Both the position numbers and the translations under genes were made by a program. 64,000 nucleotides of DNA from Rotaria sordida. Its lineage: Eukaryota. The notes beneath the pieces are model-generated. The model was given only the letters and a program-made list of their open reading frames with translations, made no database searches and was not told where the DNA came from. Location of the stretch: positions 1 to 64,000 of the forward strand of contig CAJNOH010000675.1 in the NCBI GenBank assembly GCA_905250005.1. The letters run 5' to 3'. Shown here one piece after another: positions 8,696-39,675 of the stretch; position 1 is the first letter of the stretch; each line of letters opens with the position of its first letter.

Positions 8696-8753
8696 CTATA
8701 ATAAAAATAAATAAATAAATAAAAATTCTTGATATTAAAAATCAATCTCTTAC

Positions 8754-8938: not shown

Positions 8939-9182
8939 CTAAAAACAAACAAAAAAAACGATATAATGACTATTGCTAATCAATCAAAGATTGTTTCTTA
9001 TTGATTTAGAGATATAAATCAATCGGTTAAGCCACTGTGGTTGTCGTACACCACAAAAATAGATATTTGATTTTTCTCTTTTTAAATTCTCGATGTCTCA
9101 ATTTAATCATCATCTCTTTCTGTAATAACTCAATATTTCTTTTAGATCATATTTCATAAAATAAAATTTAATTATGACAAAC

Positions 9183-9449: not shown

Positions 9450-9518
9450 CTAGAAAATATTTCGATTAATAAAATAAAATAAAATATCTCGAAAAAAAAA
9501 AATAATAATTTAATTTAC

Positions 9519-9827
9519 ATATGCAAGTGGTAAATAAGCACCAGTTTTTTTCACTAACCATTCTTCACCAGTAACACGTCGTTGACCTGTACGATCAATA
9601 ATTTCTTTTTTTGCACATAAACGAATAGCTTGATTAGAACCAATAACAGTTGCACGAATTTGTTCTTCTACACTAACTTCTTTTCGTGGAATATATGTTG
9701 CTGGTCCTTCAAATAACCATTCATCACCAGCACGACGTTGTTCTTTTGTTATTTCATCATCAAAATCAAGTACAGCTTTTAAACGTAATGCTGAATTAGC
9801 TGGTACAACTTTTAAAGGGGTAACTGG
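9519..9827 (-). CDS. MVP: major vault protein paralog B, exon 3
   Basis: Encodes [103 protein letters not shown]. Matches track ORF 9510-9839. Confidence 0.88.
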
Positions 9828-9896
9828 CTGAAAAATCAAAAATAATAATAATAATAATATGAGAAAATATCGACTTGTTTTTTTTTTGTTTCATAC

Positions 9897-10065
9897 TTGA
9901 CGAAGAATTTCTCCAGGATAAAGTGGAAATGGTGATTGATCAGGTTGTGCAAGACGAATATCTAAATCAGCATGAACAAGTTTAGCTTGACCATTTACAT
10001 CATATTGAACTTCTCCAGCTTCATTACGTACAACAGGTGATTCAACAACACAATAATGACGTGGC
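9897..10065 (-). CDS. MVP: major vault protein paralog B, exon 2
   Basis: Encodes PRHYCVVESPVVRNEAGEVQYDVNGQAKLVHADLDIRLAQPDQSPFPLYPGEILRQ. Flanked by acceptor ctag| and donor GTATGA. Confidence 0.85.
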
Positions 10066-10130
10066 CTAGATAAATAATTTATAATTTCTTTTTTGTTTTG
10101 TTTTTTTTCTTTTAAAACAAATTTACGTAC

Positions 10131-10324
10131 GGTACTGTAATCATTTTTTCTGGTCCAATTGTAACTGTTTCATTGTCTTGTTTAATAAATGTTTTTGGAC
10201 CAACTTCAAGTCGTGTAACATTTGTATTTTGATCCAAAACATGTATATAATGATAAGGTGGTATACGATACAATGGACCTGCACCACTTTTATTGGCAGA
10301 TGTAGTCGAAGTTGATGGATTCAT
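10131..10324 (-). CDS. MVP: major vault protein paralog B, exon 1/9 (start ATG 10324-10322)
   Basis: Encodes [65 protein letters not shown]. The donor GTACGT is at 10130-10125 on the minus strand. Confidence 0.88.
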
Positions 10325-12380: not shown

Positions 12381-12521
12381 TTATGCAGCTGGTGGTGCTG
12401 ATGGTTGTACCATTGGCAAATCACCATGAACACGAAATCGATATACACATGTATAATTTGGATTACCCCAATTTGATGTTACTCGAAGTTCAACATATTC
12501 AACAGTTGGTACATTAACAAG
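12381..12521 (-). CDS. SUN-domain protein, exon 7 (stop TAA 12383-12381)
   Basis: Encodes [46 protein letters not shown] (human ELRIFSNWGHPEYTCLYRFRVHGEP). An AATAAA on the minus strand lies about 100 nt downstream. Confidence 0.85.
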
Positions 12522-15605: not shown

Positions 15606-16973
15606 ATAGGAAACACTAGAATTAAAAAAAAATTCAATAAAATTAATTACAAAACGGATGTTTATCGATATATATATATCCATACGCTATTCGAATCTAA
15701 AGTTATTTAAACTTCTATATTTTTAATTAATAGTTTTCTAGATGATTTCATATTTCGATCTTTTAGCAAACAATTTGTACGACATTGAGATTCTCATTTG
15801 TTTATGATAAATTACATCATTTGAATATTTAATATTTATTTTGGTAAGTTCAATTCTGTCAATCGTATCGTAATGGTACCTTGTTGCTTGAAGGTTAAAC
15901 CATTGTATAAAACATATCTCACGTCATGCCACTTTACATTCAAACAAAAAAAAACCATTAACAAACACTTATTGATTGTATCAAATAGCTTCGAGCAATG
16001 TACGTTTAAACTTAACAAAAAAAGAAATCGAACTTTCTTTGAGGTATTTTATTGGAATCTTGCCAAGTTTTCTTGATATTCAACTAAAAGTTGAGATTGT
16101 AAAAACAACAAGCAATTATTATCGTACTATACTTCAAACCAATCGAATTGATGATAAGAGATAACTTATATCTATTTGTGTATTACGTCATATACAATAG
16201 CCAAACAAAAAAACCAGACCTTTTCAATTATTCTAATTTCATAATTCTTTCCACTAGGTTAGTCCATCAGTTTACGCCTCAGAATACATTTGTTTACTCA
16301 TTCTCAAGTATCGGCTTTTTTCTTCTATGAATAATAATTCAAATCAAACAAAGTGAACACTCTCAAGTAAATTTTATACAAGACTGAATATATTAATGAT
16401 AATTTATATTCAAACTGTACAAATAGTTTTATTTGTTTTTTTTGTCAATAAAACACTAACCTGTGAGCATAAGTATAAGTTGTTGGTGGAAGTCCACTAA
16501 AAGAAAAATTGTTTCTAATACTTCGTTTTTTTCTTTTATAATTAAAATAATTACTCTGTAGGTGATTTTGTATTTTGAAGTACATCATAAACACTTCTAC
16601 TTGTTGTAGTATTTGATCCCATTCGTCGTTTTGTTATTGTATCTGTACGTACTTCAGTTTCAATGAACATTGGTCGACGAGTTGTTGTTACTGACGAATT
16701 AGAACCTGATGTTGTTGGTTTATTTGTTTCAATAATATCATCATCAATCAGTGTATCTGTCATAATTAATCTTCTATTTTTCTTTTCTATATAATATAGA
16801 ATAGATCTGAAATTAAAAACAGAAAAAAAAAAAGGATAAACTTCTCCTGTTTATCGTGACCTATGAAACAAAGTGAACAAAGTTCGACCGATTCGATCAT
16901 ATCGATAAATTAGAAGCAGACGAAAAAGAAAAGAAAAGAAAAGAAAAAAATTCTATCGCATGTGTATACATGA

Positions 16974-17683
16974 TTAACGTTCGAAAGAAAGAAAAGAAGA
17001 CGATGAAGTGATAAATCTATCATTTAATATATCAAGTAAAGTTAATATGATTCGTGATATAGATGAAAAATATTTTAACCATATATTTCTACATTCTATT
17101 TGCATTTGATTTCGTTGATAAATAGAAATATTTCTTAAATAATATGGTAAAAGACTTAATGATATATTTGAATAAATAATAATAATTGATTTTGACCAAT
17201 TAATTATTTCACTAAATGGAAGTATAATTAATTCATTATCATTTGTTGTTATAACAGGTATACAACCATATTGTAATGATTCAAGAAAACGATATGAATA
17301 TAAACGACGTCCACTAGGTACAAGACAAAAATATGATTGACGAAGAAGTTCAATATATTCATTTTGATCATAAGAATTATTATTATTATTATCAGTATAT
17401 TTTATAATAATATCATGATTATTATTTAAATGACGAAAAAATGTACGATGATGTTGAACATCTTCATAACTTTTACCTTTAAATGAAAGTAGAATTTTAC
17501 GTGAAGAAAAAAATTTATTTGTTAAATTTGATGGATAATCAATATGAAATAATGGAAATGTTATATCCGATAAACAATTATAATTATTATAAGTAAAACT
17601 AGTTGAAGCAAGAATATATTGTGATGGTAATATAAAATCTAATGTACGTCGATAAGAAGGCCAAGTTCCTAGAAGATAATGTA
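16974..17683 (-). CDS. exostosin-like glycosyltransferase (GT47 domain), exon 2 (stop TAA 16976-16974)
   Basis: Acceptor tccttag|. Encodes VHYLLGTWPSYRRTLDF...RKILLSFKGKSYEDV...YFCLVPSGRRLYSYRFLESLQYGCIPVITTNDNELIILPFSEIINWSKSIII, closely resembling the EXT1/2 exostosin domain ([26 protein letters not shown]...LPFSEVINW). Confidence 0.7.
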
Positions 17684-17858
17684 CTAAGGATATTTTTTTA
17701 CAATATCTTTGTCTCATCTACTATTACGAACAAAAAAAAGCTCATTATCTAACAGACTTTCGTTCAGAGGGATCGGATGACATGATTTATGATTATGTCT
17801 AAGGAGTTTCGCATGATCTATCTCAATAAAATGAAAGAACAAAAAAAAAGAAATCTAC

Positions 17859-18357
17859 CTGTATAATGATTAAATATCAAATGAATTTTATTTGGATCTG
17901 ACCATTCATGAAAAAATTTAAAACGTTGTTCAATAAAATATGTATAATAACCATTTTTTGATCGACGATCTCGATCAAGTGTATCAACAGGTGCTATATG
18001 TATACAAGCTAATGATGAATCATTTGTATAATAAGATGAATTTCGAATTATATCAAGAATAATTGAAAAAATAGGTGAACGTATATAAGTTATATTTGGA
18101 TATTCAATATTTTTATCAATATGAATAGAAAAATATTTAATATTATTTGGACATTTTAATTTCTGTGTACAATTTAATATTGTATTCGAAATATGAAATG
18201 AAGGTAATAAAATAGATTTTTCATTAGAAGACGAATCAGAAAAAAGTTGAAAAATAAGTACAATTTGTATAAAACATATAAGAATACAAATAATAGTAAG
18301 AAAAATAAAACGTTGTGATATGTTAGAAAATGATTTAATCATTGTGCAATCTATCAT
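17859..18357 (-). CDS. exostosin-like glycosyltransferase (GT47 domain), exon 1
   Basis: ATG at 18357. N-terminal type-II membrane anchor (FIFLTIICILICFIQIVLIF), then ...ACIHIAPVDTLDRD...YFIEQRFKFFHEWSDPNKIHLIFNHYT. The donor is GTAGAT at 17858. Confidence 0.7.
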
Positions 18358-18802
18358 TAATTATCTATTAACCACATAAAAATGACAGACAAAGCCGATG
18401 CCACTATCAACCAATACATAGTAACATCTTTGTCCTCTATCATTTTAATGCATTTATGCAAATATAGAGATTTTTACTGATAACTAGCGACCTCAATGAA
18501 TAGAAAATAGTGTTATTTTTTTGTTTAGTAAAATGAAAATCATGTTATCTAATTTATTATTAAGAATGAAATTTAGAAAATTTAAAATCAAAACAAATAA
18601 TTGATAAGCATCTCATGGGTTCGATGCAATAAAAAAAAATTTTCTTTTTTTCAAGTATCGACTTTGTAGTTATTTTTGTATCATAGGGTTGAGTCATTCA
18701 TATGAAAAATAATCTTAACTATCAATTGAATAAATTATTTAAATGAAATATTGAAAGAAAAAAACGAAAGTTTTTTCTCTTTTTTTTTTTTTTTCTATTA
18801 TA
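18358..18802. promoter_or_regulatory. putative bidirectional promoter between divergent EXT-like (-) and KDM2-like (+) genes
   Basis: Only about 445 bp separates the two start codons, ATG 18357 on - and ATG 18803 on +. An AT-rich T-tract immediately precedes the KDM2 ATG. Confidence 0.35.
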
Positions 18803-18832
18803 ATGTTTTCAAATGTAGAAGGTCGTCGTTTG
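18803..18832 (+). CDS. KDM2: KDM2/JHDM1-like lysine demethylase, exon 1/13 (start)
   Basis: ATG TTT TCA AAT GTA GAA GGT CGT CGT TTG with a perfect GTAAGT donor at 18833. Spliced to exon 2 it gives MFSNVEGRRLRTRVKKNYVDDDDDE, aligning to human KDM2A SQRLRGTMRRRYEDDGISDDE. Confidence 0.6.
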
Positions 18833-20849
18833 GTAAGTAAAAGTTTTTATCAATTATATATATATGTGTAGATATATCGAGATTATTGGTAAAAATAATA
18901 TATAGAATTATTTTTGTTGATTTCAATTGGAGAAAAATAGACCAGTTAGAGAAAAAAGAAAAAAATATAATTAATATTTATAGTAAAATTCAATAAATCC
19001 TCTTAAGAATTATCGGTTTAGTTATATTTTAAATAATTAATTCAAAAAACTAATAATATTATTGCTAAATGATAAAATCATTATTTACTGTACAATAATG
19101 TTCATTTGAATTCAACAAAATAAAGTCATAAATTTCATTGTCTTAGAAGCGTCAAATCAAATGATAAAATAATAGTCAATCATCTAATTGTATAATAGAA
19201 GATCCAGGGTATTCTATTGTGTCTTATTTATTTTTATAGTTTTTAATTAAGAAGATTTTTTTTGTAAAAACTAAAACAATTTTGACGACTTGCGGAAAGA
19301 TTTTAAATGTTCAGGAACAATGTGAGTCTTGTAAAATTTTTAGCTCAAACTAATGTGTTTGCACTAGAAATTAAAAGCAGTGCATGCAAGCGTAATAACT
19401 TGACAACAACAACTGCTGGCAACCTGTGGTTTTCAACAATCAGCGAAAGAATGTATAAAAACGCTGTTTCGATTTGATGTAATTTTGATTAAAAAAAATT
19501 CGAAAATTTGCTAGAAATCTGTATAATTTGATCGAATAGAAATATGATTATATATAATATCAGACAAAAAGACATTCGAACTTCTCCCCTTTCGATTGTT
19601 GAAAGTCACAAGTCACTTGCTGTTGCCATAATCGAGTTATTGAATGTACACACTCACCTCTATTTAATTCTAGGCTATACATGTGAATTGTTCGACTTAC
19701 CAACTTTTATGACATCATATTAAAAATTAAACTAAATAAAAAGTCTAATATCCGATGTAAAATAAAGTAACCCAAAAAGTTTATTATTACCTACTAAAGT
19801 TTGAAAAAAAAAATCACCTGCAATCGACTTTAATCATAGTGTAAGATACTTAATGGTATTACAAACTCAAGTTCTTTTCTTTTTGTAAAAATAAAAGAAC
19901 TGAAGAAATAATATTAATATCGTTTTTTTTTCTTTTTCTTTCTTTTAAAAGTAATAAAAAGTAAGCATTGATTTTTATTTTTGCATGATGCTGCTAAATA
20001 AAAAAAACAAGAATTATATAAATTCGAAATTAAAATTTTACATTCAGTTAAATTTATTGCTATATAAAAATGAATCTACAAAAATTGATCGAATGATAAT
20101 TAGACAACATCAATGTAGAATGTTGTTAGTAAATTCTTCGAAAGTCTTTCAAATTTTCACTCTTGTTCTTTATCAATGCGATCATCTACAAAGCCATTTC
20201 TTTTTTTATATGTGATTGAATATGCACTGAAGTTTGACTCGATGTTCGGAAACTATTCGATTAGTTCAGATTAGAGTTAAACAGGACCGGATTTTTGCCA
20301 GTTCATCATTACACAATTGCTGTTTGCATCTAAGAATTTTCTCTATTGAAAACGGTATTTTTATGAAATTTTTGAAGTTAGAAGAATGTTTGCGAAAGAC
20401 TCAATATAGATATCTTATCTTTAACTTGACTATAAACGATTGATTATTCACTTTATAGCTCTATCGATTTCTTTTTTTGCATATCTCTCAATATAATCTA
20501 GATCAAATAATTTATTTTATTATTCTACTTAGACAGCTATCTGAATCAAGAAAAATAAATATTTACAATTTTATGTTAGATTTTTTTTATAAACTTGCTT
20601 TTTTTTTGAAATTAAGATGAAAAAATAAATTTGATTTAAATAGCTAATTTATATCGACATCGGATTCGAAAGGTTGACGCATCTTGCTATAAAATGTGAT
20701 GGTGAAAATTTCATTCCTCAGTTTTAGTTTCTAGTTCGAATTTAGGGATGACAATTTACTGTTAATTTATTTTAAATTTAAGTTGGATTTACATAAATTT
20801 TAAATTCAATTTAAATTATTATATTGATTTAAACCCATATGATGAAAAC

Positions 20850-21080
20850 CGGTGGTTAACCGCGATTTTACTGGTCCGGTTACCGGTTCCCGTCGCTACA
20901 ATTTACCGCTAAAATGAACCGGTTAACCAGTTCGCTGATTATCATTAACATTTAGTTGCTCTAAATCATCGATTTTGCTATTTTAAATAATTTTTTCTTG
21001 TATCTTCCCATGTCATAAAAGTTCTCGGAAAAAAACCGCCGGTTTTGATAAATACTGCGGTTTACCGCTAAAAACTGTCC
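20850..21080. other. cluster of ACCGGTT / CCGGT palindromic motifs (GC-rich patch in KDM2 intron 1)
   Basis: gaaaaccggtggttaaccgcg, ggtccggttaccggttcccg, gaaccggttaaccagttcgc, aaaccgccggttttg, gcggtttaccgc, ctgtccggtgtttacg all occur within about 230 bp. CpG is otherwise rare in this window. Confidence 0.5.
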
Positions 21081-21550
21081 GGTGTTTACGATATGAGAAT
21101 AAATTTACAAAATTGATTTTTGGATTTATCAAACTTTCGTAAATGTAAAATGATCACCCTTAGTCCGAATTTCTACACGTAAATATTCAATTCCTTTTCG
21201 CCAGATTTTTGCCAATTTGACTGTAAAATTCATCCGCCCGGTTGCTGGCTGGAGAGAAAAAAAGCTGTCCAGTTCCAACTCTGGTTCAGACAGCGTTGGG
21301 GTATTTGCTCAAGCTTTTCTTGACGTCCATGGACAATCATGGAAGTACGCTAAGGTTCGGTAGAAACCACACATACGACCAATTTTTGCTTTCCTATTAA
21401 ATATTTTTTTTTTGTTTGTAGACATACGATGATTCAATGAATCAAATTTAAAAAGACTTTAATTATTAGTTGTAATGAATATTTTTTCTATATTTATCTA
21501 GTAAATGATGATCAATAGACAAGATATTTGATTTGTTTTTGTTTTTTTAG

Positions 21551-21701
21551 CGTACACGAGTTAAGAAGAATTATGTGGATGATGATGATGATGAGTTCTT
21601 TGAAGAAGCATTGGAAACAGGACAAAAATGGAAGATTGAAGAGAAATTAACCACGCCAGATAATTATCAAGGCAAATTTGCTGAAGAACTCACAGCTGAT
21701 G
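21551..21701 (+). CDS. KDM2: KDM2-like, exon 2
   Basis: Acceptor ttttttag| and donor GTTTGT at 21702. Encodes RTRVKKNYVDDDDDEFFEEALETGQKWKIEEKLTTPDNYQGKFAEELTAD. Confidence 0.7.
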
Positions 21702-21756
21702 GTTTGTATTTAATTAAAATTTTTTGATACATATTTATAGAATTAGTCCTGTTATT

Positions 21757-22750
21757 GAAGTAACGGGTGGCCCATAAATAATTATACTGTTAGTATTTTC
21801 GAAATTTCTACTCTATTATCGCTTTGATTAAAACACATTTTTTTATCAAAAGATAGCACTCGAAATTCTCTACAAAACCATACATAACTAGATCCTAAAA
21901 CTGTTTTAGACATTTTTGAAAAAAGATGAAAAATAAAGACATACAAAAAGCTAGAAAAATAACTGGATGGACATAATGAAAGGTCGCGCTTTGCATATAA
22001 TGTTTTCATTACTTCACCCTATTAAAAGACAAAATATACCAAAAGATGCAGCGTGAAAAGCTCTACAATTTACACAAGACCACTTATTTTATAGTTGCAC
22101 TTTTTGTTTTCAAAATGGACAAAGTTTTGAACGATCACATTTCGACCGCGCAAAAATAATATTGTTTCTTTGGTACAAGATGAAGTCATTTTTTCTTATT
22201 TCATCTTCTTATTACCTGATATGTTTTCTTAAAAACAAAATATACCAAAAGATGCAGCATGAAAAGCTCTACAATTTACAAAGAACAAATTATAAAAAGA
22301 GGAAATAAAAAAACGAAGTCATCTCGTACCAAAAAACAATATCATTTTCGCACGGTCGAAATTTGATCGCTCAAAACTTTGTCCGTTTTGAAAACAAAAA
22401 GTGCAACTATAAAATAGGTGACCTTATGTAAATTGTAGAGCTTTTCACGCTGCACCTTTTGGCATATTTTGTTTTTCTAATAGGACAAAGTAAGTGATGA
22501 AAAAATGGGATGCAAAGTGTGCCCTTTCATTATGTCCATCCCGTTATTTTTTCCAGCTTTTTGTATGTCTTTATTTTTCATCTTTTTTCAAATATATCTA
22601 AAACAGTTTTAGGATCTAGTTATATATAGTTTTGTAGAGAATTTCAAGCGCTATCTTTTGATAAAAAAATGTGTTTTAATCAAAGCGATAATAGAATAGA
22701 AATTTCGAAAATACTAACAGTATAATTATTTATGGGCCATCCGTTAATTC
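21757..22750. repeat. foldback palindromic element, ~1 kb, inside KDM2 intron 2
   Basis: gtaacgggtggcccataaataattatactgttagtattttcg... at 21757 is mirrored by ...cagtataattatttatgggccatccgttaa at 22750. The arms are almost perfectly complementary through to the centre near 22250. Confidence 0.85.
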
Positions 22751-22853
22751 TATTTTCTATTATGAATTCTATGAGAATTTTCGAAGTTACAGAAGATTTT
22801 GAAAAATATTATTTTCGAATAGACTTTTATGCATTTCTCGTCTATGAATTTAG

Positions 22854-23158
22854 AATTCAATTTATCCTATATTCAACGTACTGGTTTTCCAAATCCAATA
22901 ATTGTAAAACAACATCGTGGTTTAGGTCTTCGAGTTCCAACATCTCATTTTACAATACATGATGTTCGTTCATGTATTGGTTCTCAACGTCTTATTGATG
23001 TTGTTCATGTTGATACACAAGAATCAACACAAATGACAATGAAATCATGGACAGATTATTATGATCAATCACCAGAAAAACGTTCTCAATTATTAAATGT
23101 TATTTCTTGTGAATTTAGTCATACAAAACTTGAACAATATGTTGAATCACCATCAATT
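22854..23158 (+). CDS. KDM2: KDM2-like, exon 3
   Basis: Encodes EFNLSYIQRTGFPNPIIVKQHRGLGLRVPTSHFTIHDVRSCIGSQRLIDVVHVDTQESTQMTMKSWTDYYDQSPEKRSQLLNVISCEFSHTKLEQYVESPSI, matching human KDM2A DFNVEYIQRGGLRDPLIF...VISLEFSHTRLENMVQRPSTV. The donor is GTTAGT. Confidence 0.82.
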
Positions 23159-23210
23159 GTTAGTTAATAATTGAAATTTGATGATAAAAATTTTCTTTAT
23201 TTTTTCTAAG

Positions 23211-23323
23211 GTACGTGACATTGATTGGGTATCAAATACTTGGCCTAAATATTGGTTAGATATTCAAGCACAATATCAAAATAATCTCAAACAAGAACAT
23301 ATGTATTATCCAAAAACTCGAAA
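23211..23323 (+). CDS. KDM2: KDM2-like, exon 4
   Basis: Encodes VRDIDWVSNTWPKYWLDIQAQYQNNLKQEHMYYPKTRK (human VDFIDWVDNMWPRHLKE...). Confidence 0.8.
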
Positions 23324-23384
23324 GTAAAATAGAAAATTTTGTTTTTTTTTTGATTTTATCAATAATCTATTCATTCTTTTTTAG

Positions 23385-23437
23385 ATATGTTCTTATGTCA
23401 GTTGCAAAATGTTTTACTGATTTTCATATTGATATGG
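23385..23437 (+). CDS. KDM2: KDM2-like, exon 5 (JmjC start)
   Basis: Encodes YVLMSVAKCFTDFHIDMG (human YCLMSVRGCYTDFHVDFGG). Confidence 0.8.
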
Positions 23438-23495
23438 GTAATAATAATTATTATTATTGATTATTTTAATTTAATAAAAAAAAATTTTTGTTAAG

Positions 23496-23916
23496 GTGGA
23501 TCTTCTGTTTGGTATCATATATTAAAAGGAAAGAAAATATTTTGGGTATTACCACCAACTGAATCTCATTTACGTTTATATGAAGAATGGATTTTATCTG
23601 GTCAACAAAATAAATGTTTTTTTGCTGATTTATGTACGAAAAATGATTGTCAAATGATAATTCTTGAACCTGGTTGGACATTTTTTTTACCATCAGGTTG
23701 GATTCATGCTGTATATACAGTTGAAGATTCACTTGTATTTGGTGGAAATTTTTTAAATTCATTTAAAATTCCAATGCAAATAGAAGTTTGGATGATTGAA
23801 AGAAAAGTTCGAGTACCTGATCGATTTCGATATCCATATTTTATTGAAAGTATGTGGTATATTATTCAACACTATGTTTATTCTCTAACTGGTATTACAC
23901 ATATTACTGATGATTG
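23496..23916 (+). CDS. KDM2: KDM2-like, exon 6 (JmjC core)
   Basis: Encodes GSSVWYHILKGKKIFWVLPPTESHLRLYEEWILSG...[74 protein letters not shown]. Near-identical motifs to human KDM2A JmjC ([33 protein letters not shown]). The donor is GTAAGA at 23917. Confidence 0.88.
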
Positions 23917-24102
23917 GTAAGATTTAAATTTTATTTATAAAGAATATGTAAAGTAAAAAATCTCTAGGAAACTATCAGCATCTTGTTTTGTTACTAAGGA
24001 ATTCTGGCAAAAGAGTCATTCATAATAAAAACATTTTTCTTAAAACCAGGTTTTTTTTCATAATGTTAAGCATGTACCTTCAATCGAAATAGTGATTTTA
24101 AT

Positions 24103-24575
24103 AGACAATAGAGTTTTCTATCCAATACACTTTATAGCAAGATGAATAATGATAACAAGGCTCCTAAAAAGCCCGACACGGGATATTTTTCAGGTTCTAG
24201 AAGACTTTGTCTAAGCTATTTTTAAACGGTACCATCTTAAAGAGCACAAAATTCTGAGCAAAATAAAGGGTCGTCGAGTTTTCTATGAACTTCTCATAAA
24301 AAGTTACAAGCATCACAAAAATCATGAAAAAGACGTTTTTAGTCGATTTTTAAAAGAATTTCATTTTTTCATGATTTTTGTGATGCTTGTAACTTTTTAT
24401 GAGAAGGTCGTAGAAAACTCGGCGATCCCTCATTTTGCGCTCTTTAAGATGGCACCGTTCAAAAATAGCTCTGGCAAAATCTTCTAGAACCTGAAAAATA
24501 TCCCGTGTTCGGTTTTTTAAGAGCCTTGTCATCATTATTCATCTTGCTATAAAGTGTACTGAATAGAAAACTCCA
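24103..24575. repeat. foldback palindromic element, ~470 bp, inside KDM2 intron 6
   Basis: agacaatagagttttctatccaatacactttatagcaagatgaataatgataacaaggctc at 24103 is mirrored by gagccttgtcatcattattcatcttgctataaagtgtactgaatagaaaactc at 24519-24575. The internal arms stay complementary to the centre near 24340. Confidence 0.8.
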
Positions 24576-24809
24576 TTGGCTGTTAAAATCACTATTTGGA
24601 TCGAAGCTACGTGCTTAACGCTATGAAAAAAATCAAAAAAAATCGTTGTTTCTAAACTTTTTTCCATCACTTGACTTAGGGATGTGTATTATATTGGTGT
24701 AAATACTGAATAGTGAGTCACTGGAACACTGATTACAGTGACATCCGCATTCGCTACAATATTAAAACATCAACTCTATTAAAATATGCCTTTGTTTTTT
24801 TTTGTGATG

Positions 24810-24856
24810 ATGCATTCCAATGCTTAAGTATGCATTCCAATGCTTAAGTATGCATT
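24810..24856. repeat. short tandem duplication (21-nt unit x ~2.3)
   Basis: atgcattccaatgcttaagt atgcattccaatgcttaagt atgcatt. Confidence 0.8.
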
Positions 24857-25234
24857 AACTATATGAAGTCGATGATCAATAAACTGGAACTGTACAGTTC
24901 TACTTTCATTTAATCAATTTTATTTATTGATTTTTCAATTTATTAATCAACCCTATGCTCTGATCTTATACTATTTTTATCTATTTGCTAATAGATAAAC
25001 CATTCATATACGTCATTTTTTCTTACTTATCACGTACATCTTCGAAAGGTATTATTCATTTATATTAACACTCCACGAAATCATTCTCACTTGTACGTTT
25101 ACACCTTGACAAGTTTCTGTTCATTAATATTCACGAGAGAACATATCGAATTGTCAGACGTCGTTCGACTTCGCATTAAGGACTATGAATAGGTCTCGGT
25201 TGAGACTAAGAAAAGCTTAAAAATGGTTCGAGTC

Positions 25235-25565
25235 ATAGATGGTACTGGCAACGGTCCGGTCTGTTACCGGATTTAACGGCTTACTGCCAATCTGTAGATA
25301 GTTATGAGTTTAAATTTTTTACTGTTCATCATTCTTATTGGCCCTAATTGATATTGTTTATTAAATATATAATGAAGTTTTGTTGGAATTTCACGAAAAC
25401 AAATCATGCAAAAGAAAAACTTTAATACATTCGGTATTAATAATTCTATAATTTTTTGTTGTATAGCTAGAAGTAGTAATAGCGATCCGATGCTGGTACT
25501 GATTTTAAGCCGGTCGGTCTATTAATCCGATATCGGTATACCGACTGGTTCAGTCTAACTTGTCC
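25235..25565. other. second CCGGT/GCTGG-motif cluster (related to 20.85 kb and 35.8 kb patches)
   Basis: ggtactggcaacggtccggtctgttaccggatttaacggc ... gcgatccgatgctggtactgattttaagccggtcggtctattaatccgatatcggtataccgactggttcag. Confidence 0.45.
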
Positions 25566-27106
25566 AAGCCGGTTTCATCTATGCCATCGCCTACTACTAT
25601 TGAAGAATTAATGATAATTTTTATTGATAGCAAATCATTTTCGAACTGAAATTATGTCTCTAGATATGTTTTGATAGTCTTGAAAGTTTATTAAGACGAG
25701 TAATTTATATATGGGTATAAGTAAGATTAATTTCGATTTCTTTTGAAATGTTAGCATAAATTAATAAAATCTATCTTTAAAGGGCAATGTGCGTCGGCTT
25801 TTTAAGAATTGATGATGATTAAAATTCTTTGTCCTTAGTTGAATCGTTATAAATGAGCCATTGAAAATCGAACTAAAGCATTTAAATATTCAGTGGAAAA
25901 TAACTGGAAATAATAATAATAATGTGTTAAATTGTTTCATAATTACTGTAAAATTACTAAACAAAAAAAAAAAAAGAAACACTCCTTCCTTTCTATCAAT
26001 AATGATTATATCATAAATAAAAAGAAAGATTCAAAAAAAGTGAATATATATTTTATTAAACACAATTTTTCATGATTAATCAGAATAGGAACTCATTGAT
26101 TATTTGCAAACATTTATAAGTGACATATTATTAAAGAACAATTGTAAATTAGTTTTAATTCTGTTAATTTAATATCTATTCAAATATTAAGATTGTTGTT
26201 TTTTTTTCCTAAAAGTAAAGACAACTAGAAGATTTTCATCCTCGAATGAGATAATAAGGGGACACCACCTTCGTTGTGACTACAATCAAATTGATACGGT
26301 CTCAACTTAGTAAAACTTCGTACTCTCTTATATTTATGTTTGAGTTTGTTTGCTTATTAATGAAGATAATCAAAATGATATTTGAGAACAATCGGCTTAA
26401 ACGAAAAGGAAAAAAAAAAAAGAATTTTTAATAATATTTTAAAGATATCATATAAAATTTTAGACCTAGATTTCGAATATATCCAATTGAACTTTCACTT
26501 AATTTTGTTAGCAATTAAGATTGAATCAACTTAGATTTCAAATTATTTTCGAAACTATAGAATTACATAGGAAAGAACAATTCTGATAGTATCATCTGCT
26601 AACATCATACTTCCGAATAAGTAAAAATAAAAAGAGAATATTAGAGAACATCGAGGATTTTAGTACCTATATAAAATTTTTATTATATTTGTGAAGTTAA
26701 TTAGCTACAATTTATCATATCAAACAACTATCAATGAAGTGCTTATAATTAACAAAAGAACTTTTTTTTTTTTTTTTAGAGTCAAAAGGTTTTTTTGCAA
26801 TTCTGTTTCTTTTTAAAGTAAGTTTCCGGAATGTATAATTTTGAAAGTAGAGGACCACCTTTATAGAAAAAAACAAAAACATCACATTTTAATACAATGA
26901 AATTTCAATAACAACAACGACTACTCTAAGAGTTTGATCAATAATGAAAAGATAATTGTCTTGACCGATAAAATAATCCAGAGACAGATATTTTGATTGA
27001 AACATATGTAAATATTATTGACATTATCAAACGATTTTTTTTCTTTTAATAAAAATAATTATTATTAAATAGTGGGGAGGTTTTTTTTTTATAATCTTTC
27101 TTTTAG

Positions 27107-27174
27107 TTTGGAATATGCACAAAAGCAACAAGAAACAGATGGAATAAATCCAACGACGCCAATCAATCTTTCAG
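27107..27174 (+). CDS. KDM2: KDM2-like, exon 7 (small exon inside repeat-rich region)
   Basis: Open frame (C)LEYAQKQQETDGINPTTPINLS, roughly human HLTKEFQKESLS. Phase matches exons 6 and 8. Acceptor ttcttttag| and donor GTAAAG. This exon is less certain. Confidence 0.45.
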
Positions 27175-27318
27175 GTAAAGATAAATGTAACAATCTATTA
27201 ATATAAATTCTAACAAGAATTAAGAAGATATATGATTGATTTTTAATTTGTTCCGTTTCATTCAATTTATTAAGTAATATTATCAATAGATAACAAAACA
27301 TCAATTACCTCCGCCTCG

Positions 27319-27339
27319 CTCTCTCTCTCTCTCCTCTCT
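27319..27339. repeat. (CT)n microsatellite
   Basis: ctctctctctctctcctctct. Confidence 0.85.
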
Positions 27340-27732
27340 TATGTACATTTTAGTTTGACGTTTTTCTCTATTCCATGCACACACGCATACGTTTATAAGA
27401 TGATGTTGTTAGTAGGCCTTTTAACGCTGTATCGATTATTGATGTAGAACAGATTTTTTTTTTTTTTTTTTTTTGATTTAGTCATAGAATGAGTGGGTGC
27501 GAACGATAATTACTTATTCCAAGTACTTGATCGTTCGATCGCCGTCATCAACACTTTGATCTGTCTTGTATATATGCATATATAACTTATGAAAATGTTG
27601 CTTAATCGTTAAAAAAAATCAAACATGTTAATTTGAAGACTGCAATCCGAGATAATCGAATTAGTAGTATTCTGTTCTAACGTCAATTAAGCTAGAAAGT
27701 TTATTTTTAACATTGTTCAAACAATAAAATAA

Positions 27733-27735
<3 letters not shown>

Positions 27736-27763
<28 letters not shown>
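27736..27763. repeat. (AT)n microsatellite
   Basis: tatatatatatatatatatatatatata. Confidence 0.9.
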
Positions 27764-27766
<3 letters not shown>

Positions 27767-30058
27767 TTGCTTCTTTTTTTTTTTTTATTTTATTTTAACG
27801 AACACAATTGTATATTATGAATAAAAGTTAATCGGAAAGTATTGTTATTCTTATTGACGAGAAAAAAAAAGACAGAAAGAGAAAGAGAGAGAGAGAGAAA
27901 AAGAATAAAGAAAAGTTTTGACTTAAATTAGCATTGCTTTGATTTCCACAACATTTCCTTTACTAATTTTTCCGGTATTTGATCTTTTTTACAAAATGCA
28001 TACAAGCGAAAAAGTAAATATGAATAATAATAATAACAATAATAGAAAATAGATTTTTGAACTAAATTTTATGCAAAAAAACAAAAATTAGACATTAGTT
28101 AGATATAAGTGAATTAGAAATGAAATTGTCTTTTTGCATAATCAATGGATGTATATGGAAATAGAAAAAAAAAAAGAAAAAGAAAAAGAAAAAAAGAGAA
28201 ACTGAATTTTCTCTTGAACTACGCTCTCTTATTCATCATCAGTTGTCGTTCATCGATTTCGTCAAGTGTAAGAGGAGAGCGTGCATCTTTTCTTGTCAAG
28301 CATGCTTCTTTCTCATGATGTCAATTATTGATTTTAGATGTCTTCCTTTTCGAATTATTCCGGAACGGATCTGCTCTTCTCTTCCTTCTTCTTTTTTTTT
28401 TTTTTTTTTTTTGTATATTTATATGTATGTAATATAGAAAGCATTTGTCTTATGATAACAAACATAGAAGTATCTATGTCACTTGTCTACAAATGAATAT
28501 TGTTTTGCGTACAAAACTATGTATATCTATATTTGACCTTAATGTTGAGGTTTATATAAAATGTGTTATAATATCAATGTATGTTGACCTATATTCATAT
28601 ATGATAACTAAGTATTTGATCGTGTTCTTTCAAAATATTGAAGAAGAGAAAAAAGAGAAAGTCATTTTTGATCATGTTCGTACTTGAATAAGAAAACTCT
28701 AGAGGTAATATTTGGTATTTTATATTGAGAAGCGTGCAATTATTTAAGATAATCTGATAATAGTCTCTCTGGGTATAGAATGATGAAGAAGAGAGAATAA
28801 GATGGTGATCATAATGATTTTTTTTGCTGTTACTGCTTCCTGCATATGCGAGTGCGTTTTACACTGTCTCAGGAGACAAATGAATAGTACGTAAAGGCGT
28901 GTTGTCGTCAGCATCTACTATCATCACCAGCATGTTGAATGATTTGCTATGTTGATAATAACACCATTGCTATCGTCATCTTTCTCTAGTGCTAACAAAG
29001 ATATAGAGATGTATATATATATATATATGTCTATGTAAAACCATTGTTTGAGAGCAATGTGTGTATCCGATCGAATAAGTCAGATTTGGTAAGAAGCTTT
29101 TCAAGGATTTTTCTTCTTTCTTTTCTTTATATTGACTAAATAAAAAAAAAATGTATCGATTAACTTTGTGAATAATTGTCATTCAGTTGTATTGAGAAGA
29201 AAGAAACAAAAGAAAAGAATTTCTTTCTTTTTTTTTTTTTTTTTTTTTTTTATATCGTTCATTCAACCGAAAATAATCGACAACGAAATACGATATTTAT
29301 TTTCTTCATTCATTTTAAGAATTTTCTTATTATGATTACATATTAGAAATCGTTTTTCTTTTTTTTTTGTTCTTATTTAGAAAATTTTTAAATATAAGAA
29401 TTTGATGTATTTACTTTGAGAGAAATAGAATATATAAAAAGAATGAGAAAAAAATAAAATAGTTCATTTTTTTGGATTGATTATTTAATTTTATTCATTT
29501 AAACATGTCCCTAACAGTAAAATTCAATCATTATCATGTTCTTTCTTATTATTTAATGTTGTCATATTGATCTGTAAAACTTCTTTTCTTTCTTCTCTTA
29601 TCCTATATTCATTTTATTACTCAAACACAAATACTTTGTCGTTATGATTTGTCTGGTTTATCTTATATTGACAATCTCAAACATTACTAAAAAGAAAAGA
29701 AAGCAAAAGAGAATCAACATAAATGAGAACATAGATTTTTGTTGTTAATTTTTTCTTTACATATATATATATATATATGCGTGTTTGAAAAGAAAGAAAT
29801 GTTTGTATTTGCTAATTAATAAATGAAATCTTTCTGTTTCTTGGACAACAACTACGCACACATTTATTATAAATTTTCAAAAGTGGGCATAGGTTGCACT
29901 TGTAAACATATAAGCATAGAAAGACCATCAATTTTAAATTCTTATTTGAAATGACAGAAGAAGAAAAAAAATAAAAAAGAAAAAAGGGAAAAAAAAGAAG
30001 AGAATAATTAATGCGTACTACCGCTATTACAACCTGATCATTCGACGTTCTCATTTTT

Positions 30059-30081
30059 CTCTCTCTCTCTCTCTCTCTCTG
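30059..30081. repeat. (CT)n microsatellite
   Basis: ctctctctctctctctctctct. Confidence 0.9.
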
Positions 30082-30248
30082 TTCTCACTCGTCAATCACT
30101 TTCTCTCGCTTGTGCAATCACACACACACATACAATCATAATAATATGTTCTCGCTACACATACAACGCGCGCTTATGCCTTGTTCTTTGTTCAAAATTT
30201 TCCTTCCCTCTTTTTCTATGTTATTGCTGTCTTCTGATCATTCAAAGA

Positions 30249-30250
30249 AA

Positions 30251-30282
<32 letters not shown>

Positions 30283-30283
30283 T
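30249..30283. repeat. (GA)n microsatellite
   Basis: aagagagagagagagagagagagagagaaagag. Confidence 0.9.
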
Positions 30284-30774
30284 AGAAGAAAAGAAATCTG
30301 TGTGCAAATTACTCAAATCTTTTATGAATGAACGCATAAGGGCGAAAAAGGGAAAACTCGTTGTTTCCATACACTCGTCATTTTCTCTTCTCTCTCTCTC
30401 TCTCTTATTATTCATTGCTCCTATTTATTCTTACTTGTATTGATTGTCTTGAGTTTTAGAATTCTGTAAAAAGAAATAAAAAAAACAAACATACAAACTA
30501 CTATAACTGTAATCGAATAGGCTATACACAGGTAGAAATATATATTTGTCAATTAGAACATCTCGTCTTTTTTTTTTCTTGCAAAACATCATGTTATGTT
30601 TCATTTCTTTAATATGCTCATTTATTACTTACTACTTTTCTTCGTATTTTTTCGAGAGGTCTATTGTTATTCTGTTCAAATGATGAACAGTAAGAAGGAA
30701 GCCTTTCTTTTTTTTTTTTTTTGTTTCATTCCCTTTCTGTCTCTATTACATGGGTACAATAAATTTGTCTTTAG

Positions 30775-30983
30775 ATCTGAAACCTTGTCGAACAAGTCGA
30801 TTGTTGCTAGTGAACAATAATAATAATAATAATAATAATAAAGACATTGAACAGCAACATCAACATTTGACTCGATTTGAACTAGACGGTCTACAAACAT
30901 TATGTTCTCTCTTACGCAAATTAAAAGACAAATCGATCCCGGAAGATCTTATTCAACCACAACAACTTTTAGAATCAATGGAG
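30775..30983 (+). CDS. KDM2: KDM2-like, exon 8
   Basis: Encodes DLKPCRTSRLLLVNNNNNNNNNKDIEQQHQHLTRFELDGLQTLCSLLRKLKDKSIPEDLIQPQQLLESME, matching human HLTHFELEGLRCLVDKLESLP. The donor is GTAAAT. Confidence 0.7.
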
Positions 30984-31340
30984 GTAAATTAAAATAGAAG
31001 TTTTTTTTTTTTTTTCTTTTTTAGTGTTTCTATACGGAAAGAAAATCGTTTCCAAGAAAGAGAGAAAAAGAAAAACATTTATAAAGATTGTTATTTGATT
31101 CTTTGTATATGTAGGAAAATCTATCATTTATATCTTATCTATTTTTAATAATTTTTTTATTTAAAAATCTGATCAATAAAAAAAAAAAAAAGAAAAATGT
31201 CTATATATCCTATGAAAAAAGACATTTACACAAATAAAAAAAAAAGTCATTTGACCTCTCATTCTTTCTTTTTGTATTTCTTCTTCGTTTTTTTGAAACC
31301 TTGTATCATAATATAAATATAATCTAATCTTTAATCGTAG

Positions 31341-31454
31341 CGTCTTCTTATTGATCATGCTTCTGATGATTCTCAATTATCAATAACTGGTCAATCGATA
31401 ATTCATTATAACTATAATCATCAATATTCATTTGATACAACAACTAACAATCAA
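31341..31454 (+). CDS. KDM2: KDM2-like, exon 9
   Basis: Encodes RLLIDHASDDSQLSITGQSIIHYNYNHQYSFDTTTNNQ (human ILLEELANSDPKLALTGVPIV). Acceptor tcgtag| and donor GTAAGC. Confidence 0.65.
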
Positions 31455-31617
31455 GTAAGCTAAAAAATAACAAATAACGTAGACATACATGTACATAAAG
31501 TCGGCGGAGCTCTAAATAAACTATTACAAAAGTCATGTTAATTTAAATGTTATTTTTTTTTTCTTTTTGTTATTCTTTTCATTTGTGATATAATATATAC
31601 TTCTTTATATATTTAAG

Positions 31618-32003
31618 AACGAAACGGAGACTTTTCGAGGCATTAAACGTAAAAATCCTGATAATAATAATATGCAACAATCATCATTTCATCATCATCA
31701 ACATCATCAACATCATCAACATCTTCATCCTTCTCATCAATATGATACATTATCAATGCAACAACCAACTACAAATGTTGTTACATTACATCCATCAACA
31801 ACTGTTTTATTAAGTGGACCATTAGCTAGTTCAAATTCATCAAATTATTATCCTACACCTCATCCTCCCCCTCCTCCTCCTCCTCCACAACAACAACATT
31901 ATGCTAATAATTATAATCAATATAATCCAACAAAATCACCAACACAACAACATTATCCAACAGATAAAAATACGACTGCAAAAGACCGACATAAACGTGT
32001 TCG
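31618..32003 (+). CDS. KDM2: KDM2-like, exon 10 (His/Pro/Gln-rich linker)
   Basis: Overlaps track ORF 31672-32025. Encodes NETETFRGIKRKNPDNNNMQQSSFHHHQHHQHHQHLHP...PPPPPPPPQQQHY...DRHKRVR. The donor is GTATAT at 32004. Confidence 0.7.
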
Positions 32004-32069
32004 GTATATTTCAAAATTTGAATAATATATATTTTAAATCGATGTTTTCTTTTTTTATTTTGTTATTAG

Positions 32070-32331
32070 ATGTAAACAATGTGAACCATGTTGTCGAGAT
32101 GATTGTTCTGAATGTGTACATTGTAAAGATATGCCAAAATTTGGTGGTGTTGGAAAAATGAAACAATGTTGTTTAACAAAACAATGTATTGCACCAATAT
32201 TACCATCAACAGCAACATGTCAAATTTGTTTAAAAAAGAAAGGTTCAAGAAAATTATCACAATTAAAACCAGAAGAAATACTTTATGAATGTGAACGTTG
32301 TATGGAAATTCATCATTTACCATGTTTTCAT
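32070..32331 (+). CDS. KDM2: KDM2-like, exon 11 (CXXC zinc finger + start of PHD)
   Basis: Encodes RCKQCEPCCRDDCSECVHCKDMPKFGGVGKMKQCCLTKQCIAPILPSTATCQICLKKKGS...LYECERCMEIHHLPCFH, matching human [42 protein letters not shown]. Confidence 0.85.
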
Positions 32332-32398
32332 GTATGTTTATAATTTATTTGAAAACAAAAAAAAAAAGAAAAATAATTTTTGTTTTGAAAATTCTTAG

Positions 32399-32746
32399 AC
32401 TTCTCAGTCTGATACATCTACAAATGAAGGTGTATTTAGTGATGATATACCTGAAACATGGTTATGTCCAAAATGTATTACAGCTAATACACCTGAACCT
32501 CCATTGTATAAATTACGACCTATTGTTCGACGAACATTAGTTACAACAAATAAAGGTAAAAATGGACTTATTGAATTACCATATTCAGATCCTTCACAAC
32601 AACAACATCATATTTTACAACAACAACAACAACAACAACAACAGCAACAGCAACAGCAACAACATTATCATATGTATGGAGCAAATGTAAATACGAATTT
32701 ACATTATACAGATTCGTATGAAATTATGGAAAATGAAGCAAAAAAA
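32399..32746 (+). CDS. KDM2: KDM2-like, exon 12 (PHD finger end, polyQ)
   Basis: Encodes TSQSDTSTNEGVFSDDIPETWLCPKCITANTPEPPLYKLRPIVRRTLVTTNKGKNGLIELPYSDPSQQQHHILQQQQQQQQQQQQQQHYHMYGANVN...NEAKK. A GTGAGA donor follows at 32747. Alternatively the ORF may read through to the stop at 32764. Confidence 0.7.
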
Positions 32747-32807
32747 GTGAGAGAAAATATTTGATGATTATTTTTAAAATTATGTTTGTTTTTTTTTTAT
32801 TTTTAAG

Positions 32808-32972
32808 CGTCGTCTTTATGCAAGTATGTATACAACAAATGGAAATATTGATTCATCTGGTATAACAACCAATCCATCGTCAACAATGAGTAATAATCTT
32901 GTTGCTCTTGATGATCTTTCACAATCATTGAATGATTCGGATTTATATATTCCACAAATGTTTGCTGTTTAA
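32808..32972 (+). CDS. KDM2: KDM2-like, putative terminal exon 13 (stop TAA 32970-32972)
   Basis: A strong polypyrimidine acceptor precedes an open frame RRLYASMYTTNGNIDSSGITTNPSSTMSNNLVALDDLSQSLNDSDLYIPQMFAV*. No F-box or LRR is encoded downstream. Confidence 0.45.
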   Translation, partial: RRLYASMYTTNGNIDSSGITTNPSSTMSNNLVALDDLSQSLNDSDLYIPQMFAV

Positions 32973-33984
32973 TAAATTTCCTCTTTTTTTTTTTCTTCTT
33001 CTTCTGTCTCTCTCTCTTTTGCTTGTGATAGTTATCATTCATTCCTCTTTTTCAAAATCAGGCTACGAGCAGATACCCCGGTGTATGTGCATGAAGTATA
33101 AAAAAAAAAAAAAAGAGACAAACATAGAGAGAGAGGGAAATCGTGTATTTGCTTTTCATTTTTATTTACTATTCATTGTTTTGTTTTTTTTTTTTTCGTC
33201 AGTCATTTCTGTCTCGTCTTTTTTTTTTTTTCTTCTGTACTTATAACTTGTTCAGTTTTTCAAGATAAAGACAGATGGAGAAACAACATATTTAAATTTT
33301 AAGATGTCAAAATGAATATATAATTTGACACGCAATAACATTATTCATTGATAAAAAAAAAAAAAAATTTGTTTTATTTGTTTGACTGAACTTTCATTTA
33401 AAATGCATTGTTTAAACATTTTCCTTACTTTTTTGTTTCTTTTTCTCCTTCAAAGACAAAAAAAAAAAATTTAATCAATGATTAATTATCAAAATCTAGT
33501 TATGTTGATTCACAAAAAAAAAAGAAAAAATTTAAAAGAAGATAAAAAAAAAAACCCATTGATTGGCAATTTTATTGCACTAAAGTATATTTGTTTTTGA
33601 ATATTTCATATGACATTTATTGACAGAGATATAATTGATTTTTTTTTATATTCTACTAAAAAAAAAAAAAAAAAAAAAAAAAGGAAGAAGAAAATCGTTC
33701 TTTCATGTTCTTTCATCTAAATTAGAAGTACTTTTAACGTTAATGTGTATTCAATTAAATCTCGAACTCTTGACAGTCAATTAAACAATAGATATTCTAT
33801 ATCTTTTACTTAATTCAAATGAAATTATTTCAATGAGCTACTAAATTTTAATAAAATGTAAACAAAAGAAATCTAGTTTATACAGTGAAATGATAGAATT
33901 TTTTTGTCAAATGAATGTTTATTAATAAAAATATTGTTCATTGTACTTTTATGATATTTTATTTTTAATGATGCCGATACATCT

Positions 33985-39387: not shown

Positions 39388-39675
39388 ATGCATACAACAT
39401 TGATGAATACATTTTTATGTTTTTTCATCGTTATTATTAGTATAACATTTTTATCGAGTGCATTACTTGAAAATGATGAATATTCTCTTGCTGATAATGA
39501 TTGGATGGATTTTAATAGTTATTATCCAACATATAAATTTGATACTCGTGCAGTTAACTCACGATTTTGGAAACGTCTACCAGAACGTCATTTTTGGAAA
39601 CGATCACTTATTGAATCAAAAATGAACAATAATGATATGGTTAAATCTATTTTTAAACAACAAGACAAACATTAA
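39388..39675 (+). CDS. candidate secreted peptide precursor (RFW/HFW peptides flanked by KR)
   Basis: Track ORF. ATG, then a hydrophobic signal peptide FLCFFIVIISITFLSSALL, then ...AVNSRFWKRLPERHFWKRS... with two dibasic KR sites after an aromatic-W motif. Confidence 0.45.
   Translation: MHTTLMNTFLCFFIVIISITFLSSALLENDEYSLADNDWMDFNSYYPTYKFDTRAVNSRFWKRLPERHFWKRSLIESKMNNNDMVKSIFKQQDKH

Follow-up and report, generated by a model that had tools for sequence, protein, structure and literature searches.

A 64,000-nucleotide stretch of Rotaria sordida DNA (contig CAJNOH010000675.1, positions 1 to 64,000 of the forward strand; hereafter the window) was analyzed for a gene of the KDM2/JHDM1 histone demethylase family whose predicted product ends without the F-box and leucine-rich repeats (LRR) of other animal KDM2 proteins. 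The window is AT-rich (23-33% G+C) and eukaryotic, and open frames with KDM2 peptides span 18.8-33 kb of its + strand. Exon borders were set by reading the splice sites, and the exons were then joined. All 13 exons proposed or implied in an earlier note on this DNA were present between 18803 and 32972, on the + strand and in frame, with AG acceptors and GT donors throughout. They sum to 2625 nt, comprising 874 codons and a TAA stop (32970-32972), and possess no frame break. The exons of the model are as follows.

18803-18832, + strand: exon 1, residues 1-10, with the ATG start and the donor GTAAGT
21551-21701, + strand: exon 2, residues 11-61, N-terminal region
22854-23158, + strand: exon 3, residues 61-162, N-terminal portion of the catalytic core
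23211-23323, + strand: exon 4, residues 163-200
23385-23437, + strand: exon 5, residues 200-218, with T211, H214 and D216 (2-oxoglutarate and Fe(II) ligands, TDFHID)
23496-23916, + strand: exon 6, residues 218-358, remaining JmjC (K231, H288) and JHD helical domain
27107-27174, + strand: exon 7, residues 358-381, 68-nt linker exon by which exons 6 and 8 are brought into frame
30775-30983, + strand: exon 8, residues 381-450, polyN and conserved KDM2 linker helix region (HLTRFELDGLQTL...)
31341-31454, + strand: exon 9, residues 451-488, linker block LLIDHASDDSQLSITG
31618-32003, + strand: exon 10, residues 489-617, His/Gln/Pro/Asn/Thr-rich low-complexity linker with KDRHKRVR at its end
32070-32331, + strand: exon 11, residues 617-704, CXXC zinc finger (8 Cys, KFGG, KMKQ) and start of the PHD finger
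32399-32746, + strand: exon 12, residues 705-820, end of the PHD finger, invariant block EPPLYKLRPIVRRTLVTTNKGKNGLIELPY and polyQ
32808-32972, + strand: exon 13, residues 821-874 and TAA, conserved tail ...LVALDDLSQSLNDSDLYIPQMFAV

The model was compared by phmmer with the Protein Data Bank (PDB). The best relative was human KDM2A (7UV9 chain K; E 1.7e-143, 483 bits), while the other JmjC relatives in the PDB scored about half of that (PHF8 241 bits, E 3e-70; KDM7 226; PHF2 220). The KDM2A alignment is made of three collinear blocks representing the catalytic core (8-361), the linker (408-483) and the CXXC-PHD region (611-737), and against the 2YU1 chain of KDM2A the residues 8-472 align without interruption. 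Residues 408-483 lie over KDM2A 450-527, with HLTRFELDGLQTL opposite HLTHFELEGLRCL and LLIDHASDDSQLSITG opposite LLEELANSDPKLALTG; both linker matches quoted in the earlier note were thus recovered against PDB chains of KDM2A. At the N-terminus, exons 1 and 2 jointly encode RRLRTRVKKNYVDDDD, which was aligned to QRLRGTMRRRYEDD of KDM2A. The KDM2-specific helical linker following the JHD (HLTxFELxGL ... LALTG) is present, and the CXXC-PHD region matches the structures of KDM2B (4O64), FBXL19 (6ASB) and KDM2A (4BBQ).

Pfam identified JmjC at residues 201-303 (24.8 bits; cutoff 24), JHD at 308-361, zf-CXXC (PF02008, 35.6 bits) at 611-656 and, directly after it, PHD_4 (PF16866, 42.1 bits) at 661-731. 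The residues for Fe(II) and 2-oxoglutarate are intact, namely the TDFHID motif (T211, H214, D216), K231 and H288, which align to T209, H212, D214, K229 and H284 of KDM2A. The eight CXXC cysteines are also intact along with KFGG and KMKQ. Activity of the product as an H3K36me2/me1 demethylase would be predicted from the conserved active-site residues. The nearest database proteins are the KDM2 of Rotaria magnacalcarata (864 aa, 84% identity) and of Rotaria sp. Silwood1 (848 aa, 86%), both at 100% coverage, and the nearest Rotaria models (848-867 aa) have the same C-terminus as the window model. No entry with exactly the sequence of the model was found in the protein collection searched. After Rotaria, the next matches, at 40-50% identity, are proteins of mites, spiders, molluscs and vertebrates; the top non-rotifer matches are all KDM2A/B/JHDM1. 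On the basis of its sequence, the gene is the bdelloid rotifer ortholog of animal KDM2 (JHDM1/FBXL10/11). The KDM2/JHDM1-type JmjC-CXXC-PHD identity suggested earlier therefore stands, the best relatives being KDM2A/B at twice the PHF8/KDM7 score. The PHF8, KDM7 and PHF2 proteins share a related JmjC fold (E ~1e-64 to 1e-70) but have an N-terminal PHD and no CXXC, whereas the rotifer CXXC-PHD follows the JmjC domain. Fungal Jhd1 of S. cerevisiae is a KDM2/JHDM1-clade H3K36 demethylase without F-box/LRR, with an N-terminal PHD and no CXXC, and thus not of the animal-type architecture.

The part of the protein between the linker helices and the CXXC finger is of low complexity. Residues 484-610 contain 14% proline, 13% threonine, 12% asparagine, 12% glutamine and 11% histidine, which bears out the His/Gln/Pro/Asn-rich linker described previously and adds threonine to it. 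After the PHD finger, a segment of 143 codons with a polyQ run and a Ser/Thr/Asn-rich tail closes the protein. The short ending with polyQ and Ser/Thr tail was correctly described in the earlier note, but its length, given there as about 120 codons, was not.

Neither F-box nor LRR was found by Pfam in the 874-aa model. In the KDM2 of R. magnacalcarata and in two Brachionus KDM2 proteins, no F-box (PF00646/PF12937) and no LRR was found at E<=1. The KDM2 proteins of Lingula and of the compact annelid Dimorphilus, taken as controls, do score for F-box/LRR in Pfam. For a more specific search, a C-terminal profile was constructed using the last 340 residues of 80 metazoan KDM2 proteins, each of at least 1100 aa, and every open frame of at least 12 codons on both strands of the window was scanned with all filters off. 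No KDM2 F-box/LRR was found in the six frames of the 64-kb window; the best match (E 0.09) covers 35 residues of LRR in a gene at 55771-56655 which has no relation to KDM2. The profile also found nothing in six other loci (L001-L006; five bdelloid and one Brachionus). The rotifer protein thus has neither of the two FBXL-class features, the F-box and the C-terminal CC-type LRR, and the absence of an F-box/LRR tail claimed before is confirmed by Pfam and by the profile in the window and in the six loci.

Two candidates for a remnant of the missing module were rejected. The tail '...LVALDD...PQMFAV' shows a by-eye likeness to the vertebrate pre-F-box segment and was considered as a vestigial F-box, but this reading was dropped because the KDM2 C-terminal profile scores negative for all rotifer tails. 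The LRR open reading frames (ORFs) at 55771-59221 on the + strand were considered as the lost LRR. They were found to form a gene of LRR_4/LRR_8 type behind a Cys-rich cap (55771-56655 and 57710-59221), with no F-box, 23 kb downstream of KDM2 and unrelated to it, and conserved genes sit between the two.

Four orthologous loci representing three distinct taxa were compared with the window: L001 (Silwood1), L002 (R. magnacalcarata) and L005/L006 (labelled Adineta steineri). The comparison with KDM2 orthologs, which the earlier note had proposed, revealed the same 13 exons, stop codon and tail in all four. In the Rotaria orthologs L001 and L002, annotation places the start at the ATG of exon 1. 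All bdelloid copies end with ...LNDSDLY[I/V]PQMFAV followed by an invariant TAA. Nucleotide identity to the orthologs is 87-93% in exon 3 and 92-98% in exon 8, and exon 10 differs in length among species. Exon 13 keeps its last 25 residues in every bdelloid copy, and the length of each indel in it is a multiple of three. The ratio of nonsynonymous to synonymous substitution rates (dN/dS) of this exon is 0.22 against L001, 0.31 against L002 and 0.12 against L005; as judged by these values, exon 13 is under purifying selection. The ratio is 0.02-0.08 in exon 11 and 0.30-0.53 in exon 7, and it is well below 1 in all exons except exon 1 (30 nt) and exon 12, the latter only in the comparison with L001, the closest locus, where the substitutions are too few for a verdict. 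Exons 7 and 13, which had been flagged as possible weak points of the model, are both conserved, and their splice sites and frame do not vary.

DNA collinearity with L005 stops at window position 33512, ~540 nt past the KDM2 stop, so further exons would need to lie across the synteny break. A glycogen phosphorylase gene follows in L005, ~600 nt from the KDM2 stop of that locus, while the window, L001 and L002 continue downstream with other small genes. Upstream, the loci share an order of major vault protein (not seen in L001), Sad1/UNC and exostosin genes. The exostosin (GT47) gene lies at 16974-18357 on the - strand, ~450 nt from the KDM2 ATG, and is head-to-head with KDM2 in all long-form loci, a conserved arrangement which implies a shared bidirectional promoter region. 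Of the two alternatives left by the earlier note, natural truncation is supported by the absence of F-box/LRR at the level of the locus, by the conserved stop and tail and by the end of synteny. It was concluded that the short form is what the locus encodes and that it dates before the split of these lineages. By the same comparisons, it is the only form encoded there and is set at the gene level.

A second, collinear KDM2-derived locus was observed in L003 at 1504-11637 (labelled Adineta steineri), in L007, L008 and L009 at ~5800-12500 (three assemblies of R. sordida) and in L010/L011. In L003 and L007-L009, the equivalent of window 16832-27081 is missing, that is, the exostosin gene and KDM2 exons 1-6. 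Exon 7 of this paralog has either lost 18 nt or carries a TGG>TAG change along with a destroyed donor, and exon 8 has 2-4 in-frame stops and a frameshift. Exons 9-13 are open and encode a CXXC-PHD protein of 480-521 aa with the same tail and without F-box/LRR, which remains strongly constrained (dN/dS 0.03 in exon 11 and 0.10 in exon 12). Exons 7 and 8 have lost constraint just where the JmjC exons are gone, as expected if they are read with exons 1-6 in one transcript, and this pattern argues that exons 1-13 form one gene. Occurrence of the long and the JmjC-less locus together in one assembly is only suggested, by neighbouring accession numbers, and look-ups gave different assemblies.

Lineage-specific domain loss in rotifers, leaving a single KDM2 gene without F-box/LRR, is favoured with good confidence as the explanation of these data. 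Some findings weigh against it. The Brachionus contig ends 1.4 kb after the KDM2 gene; similarity between bdelloid and Brachionus post-PHD tails, looked for as a mark of a single ancestral loss in Rotifera, was not detected; and several public annotations of Rotaria and Adineta split the ortholog into a JmjC product of 356-360 aa and a CXXC-PHD product of 471-507 aa. The split falls between exons 6 and 8, which are 6.8 kb apart, and is seen in many deposited assemblies (L001-L012). It would agree with two genes lying ~7 kb apart with repeat-rich DNA in between, one for a demethylase with JmjC only (exons 1-6 or 1-7) and the other for a CXXC-PHD protein (exons 8/9-13). R. sordida and A. steineri do indeed possess a CXXC-PHD gene that stands alone, and vertebrate KDM2A/B make JmjC-less short forms from internal promoters (PMC7000146). 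Nevertheless, two genes are unlikely here. The phase 2 end of exon 6 does not fit the phase 1 start of exon 8 unless the 68-nt exon 7 is placed between them; the AG and GTAA of exon 7 do not vary among the four loci and the exon is 88-92% identical, while the introns around it are less conserved (~76-83% in bulk alignments) and its flanks diverge at once. Exons 8-9 encode the segment equivalent to human KDM2A 450-517, which lies within the crystallised catalytic construct 2YU1. In the paralog which lost exons 1-6, it is exons 7-8 that decayed and exons 9-13 that stayed intact, and single models of 848-867 aa also exist in R. magnacalcarata, R. socialis and Silwood1. An extra internal promoter alongside the long form, paralleling the vertebrate KDM2 short forms (KDM2-SF; PMC7000146), is plausible by analogy.

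Another explanation holds that the gene is really full-length, with F-box/LRR exons far 3', alternative or split elsewhere, and that the short ORF is an artefact. The exon 12 donor (GTGAGA) is good and could in principle splice elsewhere, gene prediction is unstable across the KDM2 family with split models, and the LRR ORF pair at 55771-59221 is on the + strand. This was judged very unlikely, since the KDM2 F-box/LRR profile is negative on both strands across the 31 kb downstream and the ORF pair is ordinary LRR_4/LRR_8 without F-box, with conserved genes intervening. Further, the stop codon, the tail and the exon 12-13 junction are conserved and selected, and the tail is unchanged while the downstream neighbours vary among species. 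A decaying pseudogene truncated by loss of its 3' part might be suspected from the loss of two domains, the very long introns invaded by transposable elements (TEs) and the low-complexity expansions within the linker. This is extremely improbable for a frame of 874 codons without stop or frameshift, with catalytic and zinc-binding residues intact and dN/dS of 0.02-0.5 in nearly every exon against three other lineages; the genuinely decayed exons of the paralog show what decay looks like at this gene.

The domain loss in rotifers may extend beyond bdelloids. Two Brachionus KDM2 models (994 and 1038 aa) are also without F-box/LRR and have a common C-terminus ...EHIYHDDD, with an IIVDSDDSDS stretch in the Brachionus tail. 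Homology of the bdelloid and Brachionus tails was considered and rejected for want of similarity, hence one shared loss cannot be claimed; a single F-box/LRR loss at the base of Rotifera is plausible. A broader proposal is that the F-box/LRR was lost permanently across Rotifera (bdelloids and monogononts), cutting an ancient link of CpG-reading H3K36 demethylation to SCF and PRC1.1-type Polycomb complexes, that in bdelloids the functions were partitioned between the long gene and the JmjC-less paralog (at least in R. sordida and A. steineri), and that the new tail serves as a replacement docking site. Taken as a whole, this is put forward tentatively, with somewhat more doubt than belief. To our knowledge, rotifers are without canonical C5 DNA methylation.

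The CXXC-PHD module gives KDM2A/B their binding to DNA with unmodified CpG, and the JmjC domain is responsible for demethylation of H3K36me2/me1 nearby (PMC6445129, PMC5388433, PMC7000146). By this biochemistry, the CXXC-PHD of the rotifer enzyme would dock it on unmodified-CpG DNA and its JmjC domain would strip H3K36me2/me1 from neighbouring nucleosomes. In the standard animal architecture, the F-box/LRR of KDM2B tethers PRC1.1 and SKP1 to unmethylated CpG islands, and both F-box and LRR are needed for the CUL1/SKP1 and Polycomb interactions (PMC7000146). A protein without them would not be expected to bind SKP1 in the manner of KDM2B or Polycomb partners of PCGF1-BCOR type, and the rotifer gene may thus encode a CpG-reading demethylase uncoupled from SCF and PRC1.1-like complexes. 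The tail LVxLDD[LI]SxSLNDSDLY[IV]PQMFAV might, speculatively, act as a replacement short linear interaction motif. Read from its sequence only, it has the look of a SUMO-interaction motif, with hydrophobic LVxL, an acidic/Ser cluster and a hydrophobic C-terminus, and this likeness too is speculative. An HP1-binding LxVxL motif as in KDM2A (PMC5388433) was also considered; compared by eye, it is not recognisable at the equivalent place of the rotifer protein, and as the tail LVxL is out of the motif register no such motif is claimed.

Human KDM2A (FBXL11/JHDM1A) and KDM2B (FBXL10) share with the rotifer protein the order N-terminal region, JmjC, JHD, linker helices, CXXC and PHD, with 46-52% identity over the catalytic core in database matches. 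The rotifer protein differs from the full-length human proteins in having no F-box/LRR, in its length (874 against ~1160-1340 aa) and in its rotifer-specific tail. The human KDM2A isoform N782, which contains JmjC, CXXC and PHD only, binds chromatin and is biologically active (PMC6445129). Its domain content is identical to that of the rotifer protein, but N782 is one alternative transcript of a gene which also makes the full-length form, whereas the rotifer short form has its own conserved terminal exon. Drosophila dKDM2 is likewise a single invertebrate KDM2 with JmjC, CXXC and PHD; as a component of dRAF it keeps F-box and LRR in a complex with RING/PSC (PMC7000146, bioRxiv 10.1101/2020.03.18.997064), and the rotifer protein is without this module, the presumed mediator of that link. 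The KDM2A/B short forms and FBXL19 (CXXC-PHD-F-box-LRR, no JmjC; PMC7000146) are JmjC-less like the paralog of R. sordida and A. steineri (L003, L007-L009). The vertebrate short forms arise from an internal promoter and keep F-box/LRR, whereas the bdelloid paralog is a separate locus formed by deletion of exons 1-6 and has no F-box/LRR. By its predicted content, the paralog can be regarded as the gene-level counterpart of the vertebrate KDM2 short forms and FBXL19, but one with no F-box.

Short KDM2 models were also observed outside rotifers. P0020, P0064, P0067 and P0083 (molluscs, unnamed Logan assemblies) are KDM2 models of 820-900 aa without F-box/LRR which share a '...KRPKREVVTPRRYLD'-like ending. 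The shared ending suggests a conserved alternative short isoform in lophotrochozoans, like human N782.

Text searches of the literature found no paper on rotifer KDM2 or on F-box/LRR loss in invertebrates, and the rotifer orthologs are already public under automatic names. As a domain loss in a known family which is visible in existing automatic annotations, the finding should be of moderate surprise to a specialist. A lineage whose only KDM2 is without F-box/LRR would be a natural separation-of-function allele, showing if demethylation and CpG binding suffice, and it predicts that rotifers either have no pathway of PRC1.1 type or bring it in by other means. The JmjC-less bdelloid paralog also bears on PMC7000146, where the existence of demethylase-dead KDM2 forms beyond vertebrates is raised as a question.

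The gene owes most of its 14,170-nt span to four introns. Introns 1 (2718 nt), 2 (1152 nt), 6 (3190 nt) and 7 (3600 nt) jointly make 75% of it, in agreement with the 14-kb span dominated by introns noticed earlier, and the remaining eight introns measure 52-357 nt. The following features were found in the long introns, none of them assigned to a strand.

20840-21400: CCGGT/ACCGGT-rich, G+C-richer island in intron 1, also with AACCG motifs
21754-22753: near-palindromic 1-kb foldback in intron 2, 85% self-complementary
24052-24632: 581-nt foldback in intron 6, 83% self-complementary
27700-30700: low-complexity field in intron 7 (poly-A/T, AG/CT and TA runs)

The CCGGT cluster of intron 1 reported before was recovered, with 11 of the 23 matches of the whole window at 20848-21242. 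No counterpart of the island was found in the orthologous loci compared, and it is probably a lineage-specific inserted element. Both foldbacks reported before were also found, and both are absent from the orthologous loci of the other bdelloids compared. The intron 2 foldback has related fragments at 42651-42773 and 44520-44660, and the two foldbacks are likely non-autonomous mobile elements. The ~3-kb field of intron 7 (~27.7-30.7 kb) exists as described, but the microsatellite label given to it did not hold, the field being mostly low-complexity with only short arrays scored by TRF. The orthologous introns align to it in the same order (76-83% identity), and it is therefore older than the foldbacks and the island. 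The 14-kb span would thus have been built from species-specific foldback/TE insertions and an older low-complexity field within the four long introns.

Downstream of the stop codon, one more conserved feature was observed.

33023-33097, + strand: conserved non-coding block, 50-125 nt after the stop, with a 35-nt core at 33060-33094

This block is more conserved than the coding exons. The sequence AGGCTACGAGCAGATACCCCGGTGTATGTGCATGA is nearly unchanged in the long-form and JmjC-less loci examined, with an identical 24-nt core and one substitution outside it. The block contains UGCAUG and is flanked by CT-rich and AG-rich stretches which are able to pair. RNAalifold on the block mainly paired the low-complexity CT and AG stretches and added a small hairpin that is invariant; covariation was not informative. 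Rfam gave nothing at the gathering threshold in the window, and the block had only chance-level miRNA-like matches. From its conservation and position, it is probably a regulatory element of the 3' untranslated region (UTR).

Few other observations were made on the window and its neighbours. Divergence from the window is about the same for the loci labelled Adineta steineri and for those of Rotaria spp., roughly 20-25% in introns and neighbour genes, with similar synonymous divergence; either the genera are closer than expected at the KDM2 locus or some labels are unreliable. A 14-3-3-like coding segment at ~48926-49189 on the + strand was seen only as a chance tblastn alignment. On the same strand, a small ORF of 95 aa lies at 39388-39675; its N-terminus is hydrophobic, motifs with basic flanks (RFWKR, HFWKR) recur in it, and no Pfam match was found for it. 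It is annotated as a gene of 87-98 aa at the collinear position in L001, L002 and L003, with a possible 128-aa counterpart in L007, and its predicted product could be a secreted or neuropeptide-like precursor.

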